44,705 nt of DNA, from the NCBI GenBank assembly GCA_043809265.1, contig JAZDDY010000093.1, positions 1 to 44,705 of the forward strand. The letters are read 5' to 3'. This DNA comes from Candidatus Iainarchaeum sp. Its GTDB lineage: Archaea > Iainarchaeota > Iainarchaeia > Iainarchaeales > DTGL01. This document shows, piece by piece, positions 4,026-26,265 of the stretch. A model generated the notes under the pieces. The model did not search any database, had not been told where the DNA came from, and saw only the letters and a program-made list of their open reading frames with translations. The translations under genes and the position numbers were made by a program. How positions within the stretch are numbered: the first letter of the stretch is position 1; each line of letters starts with the position of its first letter.

Positions 4026-5423
4026 TTATACGGGCCTTGCCTGTCTGTGCCCATGGCCTCGGATTGACTGCCTTTCAAACCTTCCAAGGCTTTTTTCCTG
4101 GCCCGGCTTGTACCAGCAGGACCTTCCATGGCTAAAAGCATACTCTTTTACAAGGCCTTCCTTTTTGAGGGCTTCAAGCGCTTCCTTCATTGTCGTGGTT
4201 GCAGTGAATCGGTCCCTGCCGATTGCAATCAATTCGTTCACCAGCATTGCCTTGTCCATCCTTGCAAGCGCTGCAACCTTGCATTCCTCAGGCCCGAACC
4301 TGAAATCCGTTTCCCCTGTTTCCTCAAATTCCTGCAGGGCCTTTATTGTTGCCTTCTTCCGAATGTTCTTAAGCTGCTTTTCCTGCCCAGGCCTGTGATA
4401 ATACGGTTTGCCGCCCACAAACGCCCTGATGACAGTGCCCTCTTCAAGCATCGAACTGAGGGCGGCATTGCTCACTTTAAGCGAGCGCAGTTCTGTAAAT
4501 GGTGCGGGGTTTTTCAGCCCTACAAGCAATGCCCTCTGCTTCTCGATTTCAGGGCTGAACTCCGGGGCTTCACCCTTTCCTTTCCTGCCTCCTGCTTTCA
4601 CGATTTCAGCGCGCGCTTTTGCCGCGCCTTTTTTTTCTGGAATCGCTTCGGCCGGTTTCCTGCGTGGCCTTGCGTTGGCGGTTCCGACCATTTCAGGTGT
4701 CAGGCCCATTGCCACAAGGAAGCGGTCGTATATTGCGCGGCTGTTCCGGTTGGCTTCCTTGGGTTCGGCTGAAAAAAGAGTCATTATTTGCGACAGCATT
4801 GGCCTGTTGTTGTTGTACAAATAAGTCCAGCTGAGCCTGCGCGGATCTGCTTTTTTTTCGCCGATCGTCCATTTCAACAACTCCCTTCTTTGAATCCTGT
4901 GCCTGTCGGGCTTGGTCTTTTCCTCGATGCCCAACACTTTCTTTAATTCAGTTACCGCCTTGCCGTCAACGCCAAGTTCTTTCGCAATATCCGCACGTTC
5001 ACGCCAACCATTTTTAACCATGTAATCTGTCAGCTGCCCTGTTCCGGCAAACTTCAATTTTGTGCCGTTTGTGTGGCGCAGGATCGCATGCAACCTTACT
5101 GTCCTCCTTTCTTCCGGCGTAAGGATTTGCTGCAGCCTTTTCCCTGCAAAGCCGAAGCCTATCGGGCTTTCGGCCTCTATCTGCCTTAATGTTTTGCCTT
5201 CCAGCACATACATTCTCCTGAGCTCGGCATTGATTATATTGTCTATTTCCTCTTTTGTCACTGCAAACGGAAGGCCTATTCTCTTAGGCTCCCTTGACCT
5301 GTGCATGTTCACTGCGGTGAGTATTCTGCTTGAGCGGGTTTGCCTTGGCAGTGCAGGCAAATCAAAATTAGGGTTAGGCCATTGCACAGCGGCTGTTTTT
5401 CTCCGACCAGGTCTAGAAGGCAT
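4026..5423 (-). CDS. hypothetical basic protein with two C-terminal wHTH-like repeats
   Basis: 465 aa with N-terminus MPSRPGRRK. There is an internal duplication ending in GGKPYYHRPGQEKQL and GRSCWYKPGQEKSL. A K/R/A-rich linker is present. No enzymatic motif was found. Confidence 0.55.
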   Translation of the reverse strand: MPSRPGRRKTAAVQWPNPNFDLPALPRQTRSSRILTAVNMHRSREPKRIGLPFAVTKEEIDNIINAELRRMYVLEGKTLRQIEAESPIGFGFAGKRLQQILTPEERRTVRLHAILRHTNGTKLKFAGTGQLTDYMVKNGWRERADIAKELGVDGKAVTELKKVLGIEEKTKPDRHRIQRRELLKWTIGEKKADPRRLSWTYLYNNNRPMLSQIMTLFSAEPKEANRNSRAIYDRFLVAMGLTPEMVGTANARPRRKPAEAIPEKKGAAKARAEIVKAGGRKGKGEAPEFSPEIEKQRALLVGLKNPAPFTELRSLKVSNAALSSMLEEGTVIRAFVGGKPYYHRPGQEKQLKNIRKKATIKALQEFEETGETDFRFGPEECKVAALARMDKAMLVNELIAIGRDRFTATTTMKEALEALKKEGLVKEYAFSHGRSCWYKPGQEKSLGRFERQSIRGHGHRQARPV

Positions 5424-5457: not shown

Positions 5458-6495
5458 TCACTCAATCCTGTATCTCAGCATTGCCGCGATTTTCCCTATC
5501 CCTTCAAGTTTTTTTCCAGGGTCGTGCTCGGAATTGAAAATATGGATTTCAGCGCGCAGGGATTCCGCTGTTTCAAGCAATGGCGTGATTTTTTCCCTTT
5601 CCTCACCCAAATATTTATCCAAAACAAGGAGTGATTCCACTGCCCCCAAATCGATTGCTTTCCTGACTTCTTCAAGGCCGTAAGTTGCCTTTCCTGTGTT
5701 TTTCCCTACCGCTTCCATGACCTTTTCAATGAGCGCGGCTTCCTTGGTGATTTCCGCGTCCTCGACGATTTTCGCGAGCGCGGTGCCCTTAAGCAGTTCG
5801 TTCACTCCTGTGAGGCCTGTTGCATTCGTGCCCTCCACAAATATTTTTCCTGGGAATTTCTTTTCCTTTAAGAATTCCTGAAGTTCGTTTTTCGCAAATC
5901 CCGGCCCGGCAAGGACTGCAATGTCGGTGCCCGAATCCATTATGGTTTTTGAAATATTTCCGTAAAATTCTTTTTTCCATTCGCCTTCGTCGAACTGCTT
6001 TCCGGCTTTCCCTGAGTGAATGCTGCCTTTTTCCTCGAACCCGAATTCTTTCATCAATGCAAAGCTCGCACTTTCATCATCCAAAATCACCACGAGCACA
6101 GGCTTTTTATGCGAGGCCTTTTGCGCTTTCTGCAGGCGCTCGTACTGGTCTTTCCTGAATTTCCTTTTCTGTAAGTGCAGTTTCTTGTTCTGCTCTATTT
6201 CCAGTGAATGCATTGCCCCGATTTCAATCAAGTCTTCGGGCTTCCCGCTCCTTATAATGCCCTGCACGCGCAACAGGCCTGAAAATTTGTCGAAATCAAC
6301 GCCCTTCACTTCGATTTCAAGGAAAAGATTTTCACGGCGGGTTGTTTCCCCTTCTTCGCCTTTTATTTTGCGCGTGGTCCTTCCTTTAACCAAATCCCCG
6401 CGTTCGATGATATGGCTCAAATGCCACAAGTCATCGCGGGTTTCAGGCACGATTTCCGCAGTGGAGCGAAACCTGTCAATCTTGAGCACTTTCAT
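5458..6495 (-). CDS. pelA: Pelota/Dom34 ribosome-rescue (mRNA surveillance) protein
   Basis: MKVLKID...ETRDDLWHLSHIIERGDLV N-terminal domain, followed by eRF1-like central and C-terminal domains. The ATG at 6495 is preferred over the TTG-extended ORF to 6519. Confidence 0.9.
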   Translation of the reverse strand: MKVLKIDRFRSTAEIVPETRDDLWHLSHIIERGDLVKGRTTRKIKGEEGETTRRENLFLEIEVKGVDFDKFSGLLRVQGIIRSGKPEDLIEIGAMHSLEIEQNKKLHLQKRKFRKDQYERLQKAQKASHKKPVLVVILDDESASFALMKEFGFEEKGSIHSGKAGKQFDEGEWKKEFYGNISKTIMDSGTDIAVLAGPGFAKNELQEFLKEKKFPGKIFVEGTNATGLTGVNELLKGTALAKIVEDAEITKEAALIEKVMEAVGKNTGKATYGLEEVRKAIDLGAVESLLVLDKYLGEEREKITPLLETAESLRAEIHIFNSEHDPGKKLEGIGKIAAMLRYRIE

Positions 6496-14898: not shown

Positions 14899-14935
14899 TA
14901 AAAAGAAATATGAACGGAAAATTGTTTAAGGCTAT

Positions 14936-15403
14936 TCAACCTATGACAAGGAGCATCGCGACAGCCAACAGCAAGCCGAAAATTATCAATATAAATGGCA
15001 CCAAAACCGCTTCTTTTTTGGATTTGCCTGCTTTTTTTTGTTTCAAAAACAAAGACACTCCAAGTCCCACAAAAAACAAAAGAATTGCACCGCTGACCGC
15101 AAGCCGGATTGTGGCCTGTTGGGAGGCATTCTCATGCGCAGCCTGCTTCAGCGATTGTTCTTTTGCTTCTGAAAGGTTGCAGGCGGCATCCCATTTGCAA
15201 TCAGGCAACCCGTCGCCATCGCAGTCGTGCGAATTGCACTCGACACTTAGCTGGTCTTCTTCGCTGCTGCTAGACAAGGTAAATTGTGCGCATTCCCCGC
15301 GGCACTGCGATATTTGGCGTTCTTGTTCTGACAGGACAATAGCCAGGACCGGCGTGAATGTCAATAAAAAAAAGCAAACCAGCGCGGTTGCTTTCCAGTT
15401 CAT
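14936..15403 (-). CDS. secreted Cys-rich protein with DGDG (Ca-binding-like) motif and C-terminal membrane anchors
   Basis: Signal-like N-terminus, CRGEC...CNSHDCDGDGLPDCKWDAAC, and two C-terminal hydrophobic helices. The opposite-strand ORF looks like junk. Confidence 0.45.
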   Translation of the reverse strand: MNWKATALVCFFLLTFTPVLAIVLSEQERQISQCRGECAQFTLSSSSEEDQLSVECNSHDCDGDGLPDCKWDAACNLSEAKEQSLKQAAHENASQQATIRLAVSGAILLFFVGLGVSLFLKQKKAGKSKKEAVLVPFILIIFGLLLAVAMLLVIG

Positions 15404-15404
15404 T

Positions 15405-15968
15405 TCAATTCGCCTTTCCGATAATCCTGTCCGGCGTTTTCCTGAACCACCTGCTTTTGAGCGCCACTTTGACCTTTTCGCCTTTTGCGTATTTTTTGCC
15501 TGCTTTCACAAAGTATTTTCCTGTGTTGAGGCCTGCGAAAAGGTCAAAGCCGATTTCCACTGTCGCGCTTTCGGAATCGCTTAACAGCACTGTCCCCCCG
15601 GCTTCTTTTTTGCCCAAAAAAATCCTGCCGCATACAGAGACAGCCAGCAATGTCAAAACCACGCCGATGAACAATTCTATGCCTGTCTCCAAAGGGTTCA
15701 GGAAAACGATTATGAACGTGGCGGCTTCGACTATCAGCAGCAATAGCGAAAAGAAAAGAAAGTATTTTTTCCAGTCCTTTCCGAAAAAATCCTTTGCCTT
15801 CAATAAAAAAAACCAGAAGAAAACAGCAATCAGGAGCGCATCCGCCGCCAAGAGCACTTCAATCGGCAGCACTGCCTTCCACAAAGGAAGAGATGCGACC
15901 AGTACCATTATCAGGCCGATAATGAGCACTGCCTGTTCTGCCTTTATCAAAGCCATGCGAATCAGCAA
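15405..15968 (-). CDS. hypothetical 4-TM membrane protein with soluble C-terminal domain
   Basis: Hydrophobic helices followed by a beta-rich tail of about 70 aa (GGTVLLSDSESATVEIGF...KVKVALK). Tightly packed in a minus-strand operon. Confidence 0.45.
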   Translation of the reverse strand: MLIRMALIKAEQAVLIIGLIMVLVASLPLWKAVLPIEVLLAADALLIAVFFWFFLLKAKDFFGKDWKKYFLFFSLLLLIVEAATFIIVFLNPLETGIELFIGVVLTLLAVSVCGRIFLGKKEAGGTVLLSDSESATVEIGFDLFAGLNTGKYFVKAGKKYAKGEKVKVALKSRWFRKTPDRIIGKAN

Positions 15969-15981
15969 AATTAACGCAAAA

Positions 15982-16521
15982 CTATTTATTAATGGTTTCC
16001 AATATGCTTTTTTCGAGCGCCAGGATTGCCTTTTCCGATTCCCTTATTTTTGCCATGAGTTTTTTGTCCTTCAGGCCGTATTTTTGCTTTATGAAATCCA
16101 GCCTTTCATTCAAAGGCACAACCGTTTCATCGATCACTCTTTTGTCCGCATAATAAACCAGTTTTTCTTCCCAGGAAGAAAGCCCCCCGACATTTTCAAT
16201 CAGGTGTTTTCTCGCGATTTCAGCAACCGCATAACAGCCCTCTCCGTTCAGTTTTTCCCATGCCAGCGTTCCGTGCATTTTTTTTGAACCGAGCGTTTCA
16301 ATCTTGTCCAAATCGTGCAATAACGCCCCAGCCCTCACAAGCCCCAAATTAACCTTAATTCCTTTTGCAACCATTTTTTGCGCTAGCTCCACAGCGAACT
16401 CCTTTACCTTAACAGAATGCCTTACAATGTTTTCAGGCACCTTGTTCCGCGCGAGCATTTCCAGGCATTCCTTTTCGCTTGGAATTTTTCCAACCTGCTT
16501 TTTAGAATTCATTAGGCTCAC
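15982..16521 (-). CDS. HD-domain phosphohydrolase (YqeK/HDIG-like)
   Basis: H...LLHDLDK...H...VYYADKR motif series. 4-nt overlap with the upstream aldolase gene. Confidence 0.75.
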   Translation of the reverse strand: MSLMNSKKQVGKIPSEKECLEMLARNKVPENIVRHSVKVKEFAVELAQKMVAKGIKVNLGLVRAGALLHDLDKIETLGSKKMHGTLAWEKLNGEGCYAVAEIARKHLIENVGGLSSWEEKLVYYADKRVIDETVVPLNERLDFIKQKYGLKDKKLMAKIRESEKAILALEKSILETINK

Positions 16522-17114
16522 TTGCAGGTTCCGGGGTTGGATTTTGCATACAGGCCAAGCGCGATTTTTCCTGCTTCTTCAATGTCCCTGCCCATTGCGA
16601 TGAAGCCATGGTTTTTCATCTGCACCAGCCTGTTTTTGCCCAAAATTTTTAACACCTCATCGCGCAATTCAAGCGTCCCGTAGGGTTGTTCCCTTTCGGT
16701 TTCAGGCACGCCGAATTTTTTCGGGTCTGCAGTGGCCCTTTCGTTGTGCCCGTGCAGTATCGCATTCACGTCCTTTCTTGCCTTGTAAATTGCCGCGTGA
16801 AGGAACGATTCGCTTGAAGGGTTTTGAATGCCGATCGCTTTCAATTTGTGCGCCTTTTCATCTATTTCAACGATTTCCACAAGTTGCCCTGAAACTATTT
16901 CCCCTAATTTCTGCCCGCCTGGAGTAATCAAAAATCCTTTTTCGGTCCTTGTGGAAAGGTTGCCTGCCACGTTTCCGCCGCAGGAAACCAGCCCGCGCGC
17001 ATAGAATGCCTTGCACCATTTTATCAGTTCATCAGCGTGCTTTGTTTCCCTTTTGCCTTTCTGCAGGTCGATGTCGTATTTTATTCCAACGTAAACCTCA
17101 GGCATCAAACACAC
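16518..17114 (-). CDS. class II aldolase/adducin-family protein (MtnB- or FucA-like)
   Basis: GNLSTR...ITPGG, SSESFLHAAIY and NAILHGHN motifs of the class II aldolase fold. Confidence 0.8.
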   Translation of the reverse strand: MCLMPEVYVGIKYDIDLQKGKRETKHADELIKWCKAFYARGLVSCGGNVAGNLSTRTEKGFLITPGGQKLGEIVSGQLVEIVEIDEKAHKLKAIGIQNPSSESFLHAAIYKARKDVNAILHGHNERATADPKKFGVPETEREQPYGTLELRDEVLKILGKNRLVQMKNHGFIAMGRDIEEAGKIALGLYAKSNPGTCK

Positions 17115-17171
17115 CCCGTATTTTTAGGTTTCATGATTCCTTCAAAGCGCCGACTCAGTTAATATGTTCTA

Positions 17172-17264
17172 ATATCAAAGGACAAAAATAAAGGAACATT
17201 ACTGTCCTTTGATAACTATCAAAAGACCATAACAAAAGTTCCTGAATTAATGTCTTTTGATATA
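17172..17264. promoter_or_regulatory. array of four 11-12 bp repeats TATCAAA(G/A)GAC in alternating orientation upstream of the 17355 gene
   Basis: ATATCAAAGGAC at 17172-17183, GTCCTTTGATA at 17204-17214, TATCAAAAGAC at 17217-17227 and GTCTTTTGATAT at 17252-17263. They form two inverted pairs with spacers of 20 and 24 bp. The AT-rich TATA-like AATTTTATTAAAT follows at 17281-17293. Confidence 0.5.
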
Positions 17265-17354
17265 ACACACGTGTTCCAATAATTTTATTAAATCTTTAGC
17301 GGAACTGAACTCTCTCTAATTGCTTATAAGGGGGAACTCAGAGATTCTAATTAT

Positions 17355-18587
17355 ATGTATGGCAAATCCGCAACTGAAAGTCACAGCCGCAAGAAGGAGT
17401 TGATTGTTAATTTTGTTATAACTCAAATCGCAAAAGGTTATTTCCCATCAAGGGCTGACATTGAAAGAAGTCTTTCCATTGACTTGAGAACTTACTTCGG
17501 AAATCTGTGGTCTGTCTATGAGTGCGCGGGACTTTCATATGAGAAAGTCAAAAAAATGAAATCTGAACAGAAAGGCAGGTTTATCACTAATTCAAAGCGC
17601 AGGTTTTCGGTAGACGAAGGAAGAAAGCAAATAGCCACTTTTCTAGTAAAGGCGGTCGAAAAAGGTCGCTTCCCAGGCTATAATGAAATCCAAGAACAGT
17701 TTGGGATTAGTCTTCAGACATATTTCAATAGCACAAGTGATGCGTATAGATTTGCACAAATAGACTGCCAAAAGAGGCCCATTAACCCATTTATTTCTCT
17801 TGAAAAAGAAAAAAAGTTAGTTGAAATTTCAAAGAAGTTGTTGTGTAGTCTGGATTTTGAAATATTGCGGTGCAACCACAATAAGGGAGCGGATTTGGTT
17901 GTGATGGATAAAGAAGGCAATATTATTCCGGTTGAACTCAAAGCTTACCATCGAAATGTCAACATTCCAATAGGCTTTTTTGGGCATTATGAAACTGAAC
18001 TGAAGCAACTCCAGCAGTATATAGAACAACACCAAGCGCCCTACGGGATTCTTATAACAACCACTGATAGAATCAATGCCAAGATTCCGGAAAACATTGT
18101 TTTATTGAATGGACGTGTCTTGAGGAAAAAATTAATAGAAGAAGAATTGACTGGGCTTTTGCCGTCTTTGGATTGGATAAGGAACACTTATTGTACTTCC
18201 AGTAAACAAGTTGAAATTTTGAAAAAGAGAAATAAGATCGCCAATTACATAATAAGCCAAGTTGCACTCGACCATTATCCGTCCATGAGGGAAACAGAGA
18301 GCATACTGAAACTTAACGTCAGAACTTACTTCCCCGAGAATATGCTTGGGGCATATCGATTTTCAGAAGTAAAGTTGCCCTGCCGTTATCTTTCAAAACA
18401 AAAAGCAACGGAGGAAATTGCTGGTCATGTCCGGCGTGAAGTTAAAAATGGCAAATATCCTTCACTCGAACGTATAGAGCAACAATTCCATATAAGCTTG
18501 AGAACATATTTTGACAGTCCTCGACAAATGTTTGAGCTGGCTGGCGTTGAAGCCCCTCGCAGATTTTTGGACAAAACTGGGACCTAA
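17355..18587 (+). CDS. Mrr-like PD-(D/E)xK nuclease flanked by four homing-endonuclease-associated-type helical repeats
   Basis: Four repeats of about 45 aa, two N-terminal and two C-terminal: ...AKGYFPSRADIERSLSIDLRTYFGNLWSVYECAGL; ...EKGRFPGYNEIQEQFGISLQTYFNSTSDAYRFAQI; ...LDHYPSMRETESILKLNVRTYFPENMLGAYRFSEV; ...KNGKYPSLERIEQQFHISLRTYFDSPRQMFELAGV. The central GADLVVMDKEGNIIPVELKAY...YGILITTTDRI...IVLLNGRVL matches the Mrr-cat D...ExK pattern. The coding sequence is visibly more AT-rich than its neighbours. Confidence 0.6.
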   Translation: MYGKSATESHSRKKELIVNFVITQIAKGYFPSRADIERSLSIDLRTYFGNLWSVYECAGLSYEKVKKMKSEQKGRFITNSKRRFSVDEGRKQIATFLVKAVEKGRFPGYNEIQEQFGISLQTYFNSTSDAYRFAQIDCQKRPINPFISLEKEKKLVEISKKLLCSLDFEILRCNHNKGADLVVMDKEGNIIPVELKAYHRNVNIPIGFFGHYETELKQLQQYIEQHQAPYGILITTTDRINAKIPENIVLLNGRVLRKKLIEEELTGLLPSLDWIRNTYCTSSKQVEILKKRNKIANYIISQVALDHYPSMRETESILKLNVRTYFPENMLGAYRFSEVKLPCRYLSKQKATEEIAGHVRREVKNGKYPSLERIEQQFHISLRTYFDSPRQMFELAGVEAPRRFLDKTGT

Positions 18588-18592
18588 CTTTG

Positions 18593-19609
18593 TTAGACCT
18601 TCAATTTTTTGATTCCTTGGGGCCTTATGATACCTTTTTCTGTTATAAAACCGGAAATGTATCTGCCTTTTGTCACATCAAAGCCGGGATTCAATGCATG
18701 GCTTTTTTCGTTCGCAACCCTTTTGCCTTCAATGAACAATACTTCCCTTTCGTCCCTTTCCTCTATTTTGATATCGGCGCCCTTTTTGCATTTCAAATCT
18801 ATTGTGCTCAGCGGCGCCGCAACATAAAATGGAATTCCGTTTTCTTTTGCCAGCACTGCTTTCTCGTAAGTGCCGATTTTGTTTGCAATATCTCCGTTCC
18901 TTGCAACCCTGTCGGCGCCCACAATGCAAATATCCACGTCCCCTTTTTGCATATAATATCCTGCGGCGTTGTCAGCAATTATTTTGTGCTCGATTCCTTC
19001 ATTCGCGAGTTCCCATGCTGTGAGCCTTGCGCCCTGCAATCTCGGCCTTGTCTCATCCGCAAAAACGAAAATCCTGTTGCCTTCCCTTTTAGCCCAATAA
19101 ATCGGCGCAAGCGCCGAACCCCAGTCCTGCATTGCAAGCCATCCTGCATTGCAGTGCGTGAGCACCCTCGCCCCGTCGTGCAACAGAATCGAGCCATTTT
19201 CCCCGATAAGCCGCCCGTTTTCAACATAGTCTGCGCTGATTTCCGCTGCTTCCTTCACCGCGGCCCTGTTCGCTTCCATCCCAATTTTTCCCTTAACCGC
19301 TTTTTCCATTCTTTCGATTGCCCAAAAAAGATCGCGCGCAGTTGGCCTTGTTTTTCTCAATTCTTCAAATCCTTCCTTTTCTTTCCCTTCCATCACGGCC
19401 TGCGCAGCCCCGAATGCAGCCGCCGCTCCAATAGAGCCTGCCCCGCGGACAACCATGTCCTTGATTGCTTTTGCTGTTTCATGGTGGTTTTTGAAGGAAG
19501 CAATCCTGAATTTGTGCGGGAGCAGGGTTTGGTCTATCATTTTCACTGTGCGGCCTTCAGGCCAGACTGCGGTGAACCACCTGTTTTTTCCGCCAAGCCT
19601 TACGTTCAT
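18593..19609 (-). CDS. mtnA: eIF-2B-related sugar-phosphate isomerase (methylthioribose-1-phosphate / ribose-1,5-bisphosphate isomerase family, MtnA-like)
   Basis: IDQTLLPHKF, VRGAGSIGAAAAFG and IVGADRVARNGDIANKIGTY...IPFYVAAP are hallmark motifs of this family. Confidence 0.88.
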   Translation of the reverse strand: MNVRLGGKNRWFTAVWPEGRTVKMIDQTLLPHKFRIASFKNHHETAKAIKDMVVRGAGSIGAAAAFGAAQAVMEGKEKEGFEELRKTRPTARDLFWAIERMEKAVKGKIGMEANRAAVKEAAEISADYVENGRLIGENGSILLHDGARVLTHCNAGWLAMQDWGSALAPIYWAKREGNRIFVFADETRPRLQGARLTAWELANEGIEHKIIADNAAGYYMQKGDVDICIVGADRVARNGDIANKIGTYEKAVLAKENGIPFYVAAPLSTIDLKCKKGADIKIEERDEREVLFIEGKRVANEKSHALNPGFDVTKGRYISGFITEKGIIRPQGIKKLKV

Positions 19610-26175: not shown

Positions 26176-26265
26176 TGGACTGGCTGGGGCTCGAACCCAG
26201 AGCCTCCACAACTTTGGCCTCTTCGAAGTTGCCAATGTGGCGATCTACCATTGATCTACCAGCCC
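26176..26265 (-). tRNA. tRNA-Ala (anticodon GGC) with an 18-nt anticodon-loop intron
   Basis: Acceptor GGGCUGG/CCAGUCC includes the G3:U70 Ala identity pair. D stem GAUC/GAUC, anticodon stem CCACA/UGUGG enclosing 25 nt (UUGGCA + intron). Intron GCCAA pairs with the anticodon region (bulge-helix-bulge-like). T arm CUGGG-UUCGAGC-CCCAG. Confidence 0.85.

Follow-up and report, generated by a model that had tools for sequence, protein, structure and literature searches.

How does a single nuclease gene come to stand, on the opposite strand, between two genes that would be expected to adjoin one another? The question is raised by a stretch of 44,705 nucleotides from Candidatus Iainarchaeum sp. (assembly GCA_043809265.1, contig JAZDDY010000093.1, positions 1 to 44,705 of the forward strand; hereafter the window), in which an open reading frame (ORF) of 410 codons, whose gene and product we call X, lies between a class II aldolase (MtnB-like) gene and mtnA. 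The product of X is 100% identical to a 'hypothetical protein' at NCBI from a metagenome-assembled genome (MAG) of Candidatus Diapherotrites (Iainarchaeum-like, DPANN). A first-pass annotation of the window had reported this arrangement, and the coordinates together with the PF00596 and TIGR00512 matches of the neighbours bear it out. The evidence below favors, at a rough probability of 0.58, the view that X encodes a free-standing endonuclease of homing type and is the only gene in a small, selfish mobile cassette. The features of the locus are listed here by window coordinates; in what follows P numbers denote proteins and L numbers the loci compared.

17355 to 18587, plus strand: nuclease gene X, an ORF with an ATG start, 410 aa.
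16518 to 17105 (alternative end 17114), minus strand: class II aldolase/MtnB-like gene (PF00596, E 3e-25).
18593 to 19609, minus strand: mtnA (IF-2B family), the target or host gene (TIGR00512, 383 bits).
17144 to 18671, no strand assigned: foreign segment (leader, X and replacement mtnA tail), absent from L009 to L012 and of the lowest GC in the window.
17098 to 17143, minus strand: decayed remnant of the ancestral mtnA tail, aligning to the intact tail of L009.
18593 to 18680 (end approximate), minus strand: replacement 3′ tail of mtnA (..RYISGFITEKGIIRPQGIKKLKV*), diverged from L009 and AT-rich.

Relatives of the host preserve the site in its empty state. When GTDB species representatives were scanned with the window MtnA, none of the 80 loci recovered encoded X. 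The closest of these (L009) has an MtnA that is 93% identical and is collinear with the window over ~11 kb at 84–90% nucleotide identity (about 88%); blastn aligns window positions 15409–17123 and 18672–19579 at 86–89%, and 1548 bp of the window stand in place of 62 bp in L009. X is absent from L009, and since the mtnA stop there overlaps the aldolase ATG (ATGCCTGA) the two genes are translationally coupled, as they formerly were in the window. The aldolase likewise follows mtnA directly, with X absent, in L010, L011 and L012, whose MtnA proteins are 77%, 70% and 67% identical, so that the adjacency expected by the first-pass annotation is what the synteny of all four relatives displays.

The insertion is not simply intergenic. 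X does lie between the aldolase gene and mtnA, as had been described, but the ancestral mtnA ORF is broken by the insert within its final ~17 codons. On its left side the remnant at 17098–17143 reads ..EGIMKPK(frameshift)IRGVFDA*, with the old TGA stop overlapping the aldolase ATG; aligned to the intact L009 tail (..EEGIIRPKPDEIKGVFDA*) it gives 34/42 matches with two deletions, covers the last ~17 codons and has a protein-level score of 33 against a shuffle maximum of 30. On the right side, mtnA identity to L009 is 0.62 (18593–18652) and 0.73 (18653–18712) compared with 0.83–1.00 further 5′, the diverged stretch amounting to the terminal ~80–120 nt, and the replacement tail has a GC content of 0.33, with GC at third codon positions (GC3) of 0.40 in the last 30 codons versus ~0.53 for the remainder of the gene. 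A direct repeat, D7 (17129–17142 ~ 18605–18618), ties the remnant to the new tail. Because a remnant lies left of the insert and a diverged, low-GC tail lies right of it, the host tail has been displaced and is decaying, and mtnA now ends on an imported AT-rich tail. That tail appears to have arrived together with the element, and its divergence is compatible with, if short of proof of, co-conversion of flanking target sequence. The naive L009-type mtnA 3′ end contains ..NPGFDVTPARYIKGIITEEGII...

X is the sole gene of the 1.5-kb insert, which holds no second gene and no integrase. No terminal inverted repeats or short target-site duplication were found bounding the insert, no tRNA was found adjoining it, and no DNA methyltransferase (M) gene was found near X. 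Its composition is foreign to the host. GC is 0.35–0.40 over 17100–18600 versus 0.47–0.53 in the flanks, the bin at 17001–18000 (0.372) is the lowest among the 44 one-kilobase bins profiled in the window, and GC3 is 0.39 for X versus 0.52–0.55 for its two neighbouring genes; the impression, first gained by eye, that the gene and its 240-nt leader (17115–17354) are more AT-rich than their surroundings therefore holds. Similar contrasts recur in other hosts of X-type genes (GC3 of X versus flanks 0.32 vs 0.54, 0.33 vs 0.62, 0.26 vs 0.39–0.68, 0.24 vs 0.45–0.56 and 0.17 vs 0.43–0.56). Across hosts with GC3 of 0.45–0.68 that of X is 0.17–0.39, and the contrast is lost only in the already AT-rich L004 and L008. 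The same depletion extends into the neighbouring IF-2B gene, whose final 30 codons have a mean GC3 shift of −0.15 at 8 loci with X versus −0.016 ± 0.097 at 80 loci without it (Mann–Whitney p = 4e-4).

The association with IF-2B-family genes is recurrent. Neither this recurrence nor the position of the insertion within the 3′ end of mtnA, to which it supplies a new tail, had been noted in the first-pass annotation. An IF-2B-family isomerase gene adjoins X in 12 of 13 informative loci (the window, L001, L002, L003, L004/5, L006, L008, the P0013 contig, L091, L092, L095 and L098/99); at the thirteenth, L007, the neighbour is AdoHcyase. Most of these contexts come from short metagenomic contigs, and ~140 more distant family members lie outside the context sample. 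X and the isomerase gene usually converge, their 3′ ends either overlapping or separated by a few nucleotides; only in L095/L096 do the two run in one direction. The upstream neighbour varies among aldolase, HAD, DeoC, RuBisCO and AMP phosphorylase genes, and in the window X (plus strand) opposes both aldolase and mtnA (minus strand). The isomerases are of two paralogous types, mtnA-type (338–357 aa) and ribose-1,5-bisphosphate isomerase type (273–275 aa). The X proteins beside the two types are 39–53% identical and the isomerases themselves 32–40%, and X thus appears to cross the paralogue boundary within the IF-2B family. One locus, L091, was considered as a context lacking IF-2B and was rejected as such, its alignment to L004 placing the IF-2B gene after an extra 1.1-kb gene. 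These two loci (L091 1618–2721 versus L004 3807–3936) are 84% identical, but the interval separating X from the isomerase gene differs by ~1.1 kb. In L091 it is occupied by the fifth repeat of X and a gene for a 307-aa Cys-rich, signal-peptide-like product, after which the IF-2B gene follows; in L004, X is shorter and the gap measures 130 nt.

The exchange of tails can be followed among the short-type isomerases. Most of the 120 relatives listed end ..TEKGxMTPGNVLRMLK*, the normal tail including ..GTNGTNACNGARAARGGNATNATGACNCCNGGNAAY.., and 7 (~6%) end ..EKGIMTPKxFLKL..*. The ..FLKL.. tails belong to L002, L006, L095, L098/99 and L096. Tail type was checked as a predictor of occupancy. P0162, which among relatives comes nearest to the L002 isomerase (80% identity) and has a normal tail, is followed by an 80-aa ORF and RuBisCO, and L097 also has a normal tail; X is absent from both. 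For P0164, with the alternative tail, the C-terminus of X overlaps the isomerase 3′ end. L096 (P0206) bears a deletion footprint at 5835–5901, corresponding to the degeneration or loss stage of a homing cycle: it retains the X-type tail, the spacer and only 12 initial codons of X (MPRMEFQNKKRE), beyond which the sequence is unrelated.

Displaced tails are also found beyond X at several of these loci. At L002 the old tail ..SGNVLRMLK* lies on the far side of X and overlaps the start of the next ORF; at L095 the reading frame of X runs on into the old tail, ..VVTEKGVLTSGNILRMLK*, which has a stop that overlaps the RuBisCO ATG and which scores 81 against a shuffle maximum of 34; the remnant at L006 is borderline. 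In all, old-tail remnants were detected at 4 of 9 IF-2B loci searched and at the AdoHcyase locus. In this last case (L007, positions 399–618 and 1775–1880, encoding P0015, the most divergent homologue), the gene invaded at its 3′ end is that for S-adenosylhomocysteine hydrolase (AdoHcyase), and a 35-codon duplicate of the gene tail lies beyond X; the stranded copy, ..DIQIAELQLQATGIKRDALTAEQKKYLASWQEGT*, is GC-richer than the functional one. The locus records a switch of target gene. Overall the flanking tail repeats measure 46–105 nt, the copies are 62–68% identical, and one of the two has a donor-like composition.

The resulting order, gene body with element-borne tail, element and then host tail, is exactly what recombination of attP with attB would give, which raises the alternative of an integrating element with one gene, for which X would act as recombinase: its nuclease and helix-turn-helix (HTH) arrays would insert, site-specifically, a (circular?) cassette whose attachment site contains a gene tail, much as integrases insert elements into the 3′ ends of genes or tRNAs but with a PD-(D/E)xK enzyme. 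The absence of any other gene from the cassette and the occurrence of both orientations are in keeping with such an element. Against it, the two tail copies share no conserved core beyond their homology, a circular or excised form was not seen, and the imported tract reaches upstream of the duplicated part, which gene conversion explains better than a fixed crossover. Family searches gave no match of X to tyrosine or serine recombinase families. We know of no PD-(D/E)xK enzyme that carries out strand exchange alone, and we regard autonomous integration as improbable.

What kind of protein is X? Homologues are rare, with 15 among 5.8 billion clustered proteins, 32–50% identical and derived without exception from metagenomes or DPANN MAGs; when 1.84 billion representatives are searched with a profile, the family grows to 156 sequences at E ≤ 1e-3. 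The protein features are placed as follows.

17391 to 17774, plus strand: N-terminal HEAR-like/LexA-like three-helix repeats R1 (17391–17546) and R2 (17619–17774), from the repeat model and hhalign.
17787 to 18209, plus strand: PD-(D/E)xK (Mrr_cat-like) nuclease domain, from profile matches, alignment and predicted structure.
17892–17894, 17934–17936 and 17940–17942, plus strand: codons of the catalytic residues D180, E194 and K196, from the alignment.
18225 to 18560, plus strand: C-terminal repeats R3 (18225–18383) and R4 (18405–18560), from the repeat model and hhalign.

The core motif is D-x13-E-L-K, with D180, E194 and K196 invariant in the alignment of the 15 homologues and G178, Q218 and the GILITT(T) strand also invariant or nearly so; the family has a complete PD-(D/E)xK signature. 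By itself X scores 14.4 bits against Mrr_cat (PF04471; cut-off 21, E 0.041), which is sub-threshold; 12 of the 15 family members do match Mrr_cat (best E 1.6e-12), and HSDR_N_2, Mrr_cat_2, PDDEXK_3 and NucS_C are each matched by single members. The structure predicted by AlphaFold2 from the alignment of the family (mean predicted local distance difference test score 81.5, predicted template modelling score 0.47) has a central alpha/beta domain with helical modules on either side. The predicted elements of that domain (helix 147–165, strands 169–173, 181–184 and 190–196, helix 215–225 and strand 231–235) follow the alpha-beta-beta-beta-alpha-beta order of the restriction-endonuclease-like fold. 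The Mrr-like core proposed by the first-pass annotation is in this way upheld by homologues, invariant residues and fold together. No solved structure related to X by sequence was found, and no HNH domain was found in X; the partner nuclease of its repeats is PD-(D/E)xK.

In Foldseek comparisons with the PDB the central domain is closest to NucS/EndoMS (probability 0.99), Cas4 SSO0001 (0.97), VRR-NUC (0.91) and Hjc (~0.8), with E-values that are weak (at least 0.016) owing to the multi-domain query. The top-ranking NucS/EndoMS and the Hjc match would suit a housekeeping repair or resolution nuclease encoded here by chance. A repair function is hard to reconcile with a patchy distribution of 15 close homologues among 5.8 billion proteins, absence from sister genomes, foreign composition, variable DNA-binding arrays and insertion scars, and we find it scarcely credible.

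More serious is the proposal of a restriction or defence role for X, as a solitary Mrr-like nuclease (type IV or orphan). It would move as restriction genes do, through homology-facilitated illegitimate recombination or 'insertion with long target duplication', and would stay beside IF-2B genes only on account of a piece of such a gene carried along as a recombination anchor, cleavage of IF-2B being no part of the process. Mrr_cat is the best-matching catalytic-domain family, P0015 weakly matches PADLOC mREase_IV (E 0.006) and PDC-S01/S02, and the imported tail would fit a homologous anchor. Restriction genes, type IV included, are known to insert with direct target repeats of >30 bp and no other mobility gene, and the published insertions often overlap gene 3′ ends and have low-GC inserts (PMC2853133). 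Several observations speak against it. X and 3 of 4 homologues tested have no PADLOC match, which also led us to reject X as part of a known defence system; neither an adjacent DNA methyltransferase nor a defence-island context is present, the neighbours being housekeeping salvage genes; and arrays of 4–5 DNA-binding modules, of a kind also present in homing proteins of the LAGLIDADG and HNH types, point to recognition of a long specific site and not of modified bases. Furthermore, the X loci do not have near-identical >30-bp repeats of host origin flanking a restriction (with or without M) unit: their flanking repeats are 62–68% identical versus 93–100% in the published restriction-gene cases, and the published survey contains no archaeal case (PMC2853133). 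On this balance a restriction or defence function seems unlikely. A viral origin was considered as well and rejected, there being no relative in IMG/VR and no meaningful PHROG match.

The DNA-binding repeats were not visible to a self-BLAST of X for internal repeats, which found nothing, and a hidden Markov model (HMM) built within the family was needed. It finds exactly four units, at residues 13–64, 89–140, 291–343 and 351–402, confirming the two repeats on each side of the central D-x(n)-E-L-K domain that had been read from the sequence, with a unit of ~52 aa rather than the ~45 aa given at first. Complete homologues have 4–5 repeats each, arranged 2+2, 2+3, 1+3, 4+1 or 3+1 around the core, and P0014, a 259-aa fragment, has two only. 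The further suggestion, that these resemble the homing endonuclease associated repeat (HEAR, PF18780), survives at the level of profiles and fails as a direct family match. PF18780 is not matched by X at E ≤ 1, does not figure in the best 25 of the 48 families that the 15 homologues match, and is absent from all 24 families matched by 45 isolated repeats at E ≤ 10, of which 8 match LexA_DNA_bind (best E 3.8e-4) and 3 match NUMOD1 weakly. The X family profile retrieves P0144 (E 4.3e-6), a protein with eight PF18780 repeats (E 4e-62) and no recognisable nuclease, and hhalign aligns the X-repeat profile with the P0144 repeats at 91.6% probability (E 8.1e-7, 48 of 52 columns). On the strength of these two results the X repeats are remote homologues of HEAR, a divergent branch associated with a third nuclease fold. 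Other combinations occur among distant relatives: P0094 fuses an X-type repeat to a LAGLIDADG_3 domain, and P0096 and P0127 place an X-type nuclease domain behind long arrays of unrelated HTH domains. Taken with P0144, these architectures indicate modular shuffling of DNA-binding arrays and nuclease domains.

The leader of X has features of its own.

17144 to 17354, plus strand: leader and promoter region of X, AT-rich, with a TATA-like box.
17173 to 17262, no strand assigned: four copies of TATCAAAGGACA as two inverted pairs (17173–17214 and 17217–17262), candidate operator or binding sites.

The TATA-like box, CTTATAAGG, lies ~30 nt upstream of the X ATG, in a position comparable at other loci. 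The four TATCAAAGGACA copies have 0–2 mismatches each; across the window there are 10 matches versus 3.2 expected, a number that no shuffle reached, and they cluster only in the X leader, where they may form an autoregulatory operator. The motif was considered as the target site and rejected, being absent from naive mtnA tails. Its copy number in the leader equals the number of DNA-binding repeats in X. Leader motifs vary from locus to locus: the two closest family members share AGCGGAACT (L003 1551–1731; window 17290–17310), which in L003 lies within the palindrome TAGCGGAACTCCGCTA, accompanied by two direct repeats of TATCGGAACT.

Four half-sites in the leader, four DNA-binding repeats and LexA-type HTH similarity could be taken to describe a pathway-specific regulator of nucleoside or methylthioadenosine salvage genes, with the nuclease-fold domain as effector or oligomerisation module. 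X also always lies within salvage gene clusters, usually divergent from an upstream operon (RuBisCO, aldolase or DeoC). A vertically inherited pathway partner or regulator, as the first three IF-2B contexts had suggested, was rejected on the X-free closest relatives and the foreign GC3. For a regulator in general, the closest relatives keep the pathway genes without X, ~6% only of related isomerase genes bear an X-type tail, codon composition is foreign in most hosts, and the catalytic D, E and K are invariant. X moreover interrupts translationally coupled genes, leaves gene-tail debris and is known from a deletion footprint. Since the pathway persists in sister genomes that lack X, and since the insertion of X breaks translational coupling, we consider a regulatory role very improbable.

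A homing-type selfish nuclease gene accounts for the occupied, empty and footprint sites, the recurrent target, the imported tract and the foreign composition, and equally for an intact nuclease with invariant residues joined to a repeat array common to HNH and LAGLIDADG homing proteins; recurrent target, tail remnants, footprint and composition also substantiate the laterally acquired, selfish nature first proposed for the gene. Recognition would be by the 4–5 HEAR/LexA-like three-helix modules, which may read a long stretch of DNA where isomerase genes of the IF-2B family (mtnA or ribose-1,5-bisphosphate isomerase) are conserved near their 3′ ends; one divergent branch would target AdoHcyase in their place. 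The Mrr-like PD-(D/E)xK domain would then cut cassette-free alleles, and the break would be mended from a cassette-bearing copy. On the gene-body side homologous recombination would copy in the AT-rich tail of the donor; on the other side the join could be homologous or illegitimate, and an illegitimate join would strand the host tail beyond the cassette. The host gene would stay intact by virtue of the replacement tail, and the changed tail would presumably remove the recognition site and so confer immunity. We infer from the comparisons that X cleaves the naive allele, where the cut would fall, that the occupied allele is immune and that cleavage drives transfer.

What is expected of a free-standing homing gene can be seen in this family: presence/absence polymorphism in close relatives (L009–L012 empty versus the window; P0162 and L097 empty versus L002, L006 and L098), a conserved target gene recurring across hosts (12 of 13 loci, with two paralogous types), a flank compatible with co-conversion and a stage of degeneration. 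When free-standing homing endonucleases mobilise themselves they carry flanking DNA with them (PMC2790892), and PD-(D/E)xK is named as one of six recognised homing endonuclease families (PMC6083498).

A number of observations weigh against a homing-type gene. Support for it is entirely comparative. Classical homing replaces recipient sequence and does not strand it, and the stranded remnants require one-sided (illegitimate) repair or some other insertion chemistry. Scores for old-tail remnants at L001, L003, L004, L008 and L092 fall within the shuffle range, and none is detectable there. Both orientations of X relative to the isomerase occur, which simple homology-driven homing does not predict. 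The best match has 50% amino acid identity, no near-identical donor copy was sampled and no recent transfer was observed directly. X was not found in the IMG/VR viral contigs. Mrr_cat, the best Pfam family, is typical of type IV restriction enzymes and not of known homing enzymes, and structural similarity to the homing endonuclease I-Ssp6803I is weak (Foldseek rank 48, 50 aligned residues). Explanations by a restriction gene or by self-integration stay under consideration on account of three of these points, namely the stranded tails, the two orientations and the lack of a near-identical donor.

A bolder form of the homing hypothesis can be entertained tentatively, at odds clearly short of even: X might exemplify a new class of archaeal single-gene 'tail-swapping' homing element, which would use a re-arrangeable HEAR-like array to settle in the 3′ ends of essential metabolic genes, in either orientation and with its own replacement tail, would retarget from IF-2B to AdoHcyase by a change of array, and would perhaps catalyse its own insertion.

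Introns, inteins and the genomes of phages are familiar homes of selfish genes of the homing type. To our knowledge, free-standing homing genes in cellular archaeal chromosomes, and especially in the tiny DPANN genomes, are essentially undescribed. Full-text literature searches gave no match for the repeat's name and nothing comparable for free-standing archaeal homing genes, and no description of the combination was found. The parts are known, namely the PD-(D/E)xK/Mrr_cat domain, repeats of the HEAR branch, behavior like that of phage homing genes and ends like those of integrative elements, and it is their combination that appears to be new. X would offer a route by which a coding sequence can be invaded without intron or intein, and it is tolerated in an operon of translationally coupled salvage genes because the element brings a substitute gene tail. 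HEAR would become linked to three nuclease folds (HNH, LAGLIDADG and PD-(D/E)xK), as a portable, modular unit of DNA recognition of possible interest for engineering long-site nucleases. For annotation and phylogeny, the C-termini of mtnA and ribose-1,5-bisphosphate isomerase genes at such loci can be chimeric and of foreign origin.

The vicinity contains further differences between the window and L009. Two paralogous genes of ~269 aa without Pfam match (L009 2953–3762 and ~4150–4951) are inserted there among the L15e gene, a 116-aa gene and mtnA, where the window has 8 bp and 47 bp instead, and constitute a second pair of indel polymorphisms within the same 5 kb. Conversely, window positions 14911–15408 hold 498 bp in place of 29 bp of L009, with a window-specific gene, a 155-aa ORF (14936–15403) with hydrophobic N- and C-termini, Cys-rich and without Pfam match. 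Elsewhere in the window, positions 26176–26265 (minus strand) match an Rfam tRNA model (57 bits, 90 nt) on which ARAGORN is silent, and probably encode an intron-containing archaeal tRNA.

Among known systems, the HEAR proteins (PF18780) share with X the length and layout of the repeat, helix, G-x-x-P, helix, aromatic motif and a helix ending A-G-[LIV]. The FGSW motif of HEAR corresponds to T-Y-F in X, individual X repeats fall short of the Pfam model, and the partner is PD-(D/E)xK where HEAR is normally joined to HNH. Escherichia coli Mrr and other PF04471 type IV enzymes resemble X in combining a winged-helix-type DNA-binding region with a PD-(D/E)xK domain and in being laterally acquired and solitary; Mrr has one N-terminal winged helix whereas X has 4–5 HEAR-like modules on both sides of its core, and X alone has a fixed genomic target and replaces a gene tail. 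I-Ssp6803I, the one characterised PD-(D/E)xK homing endonuclease, has a catalytic domain of the same superfamily and resembles X weakly in structure, but is intron-encoded, small and devoid of separate DNA-binding repeats, and no sequence relationship to X is detectable.

With respect to insertion, the restriction genes with long target duplication described by Nobusato, Furuta and Kobayashi (PMC2853133) are similar in consisting of a nuclease unit without transposase or integrase, in the low GC of the insert, in their frequent position at gene 3′ ends and in flanking direct repeats of >30 bp, of which the empty genome has a single copy. Those cases are near-identical host duplications, whereas at X loci one copy is imported and diverged, no methyltransferase is present and one gene family is hit in distant genomes. 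Integrative elements in the 3′ ends of genes or tRNAs have the same order of gene body with element-borne tail, element and displaced host tail; X differs from them in having no integrase or second gene and in its size of only ~1.5 kb. The phage free-standing homing endonucleases (T4 Seg/Mob, for example MobE, and F-CphI) are likewise single nuclease genes beside conserved genes, with presence/absence polymorphism, with modular DNA-binding regions apart from the catalytic domain and with co-transfer of flanking DNA (PMC2790892). They are of GIY-YIG, HNH or EndoVII type and reside in phage genomes. X, by contrast, has an Mrr-like PD-(D/E)xK core and resides in archaeal (DPANN) chromosomes, inside the 3′ end of its target ORF, to which it supplies a replacement coding tail.

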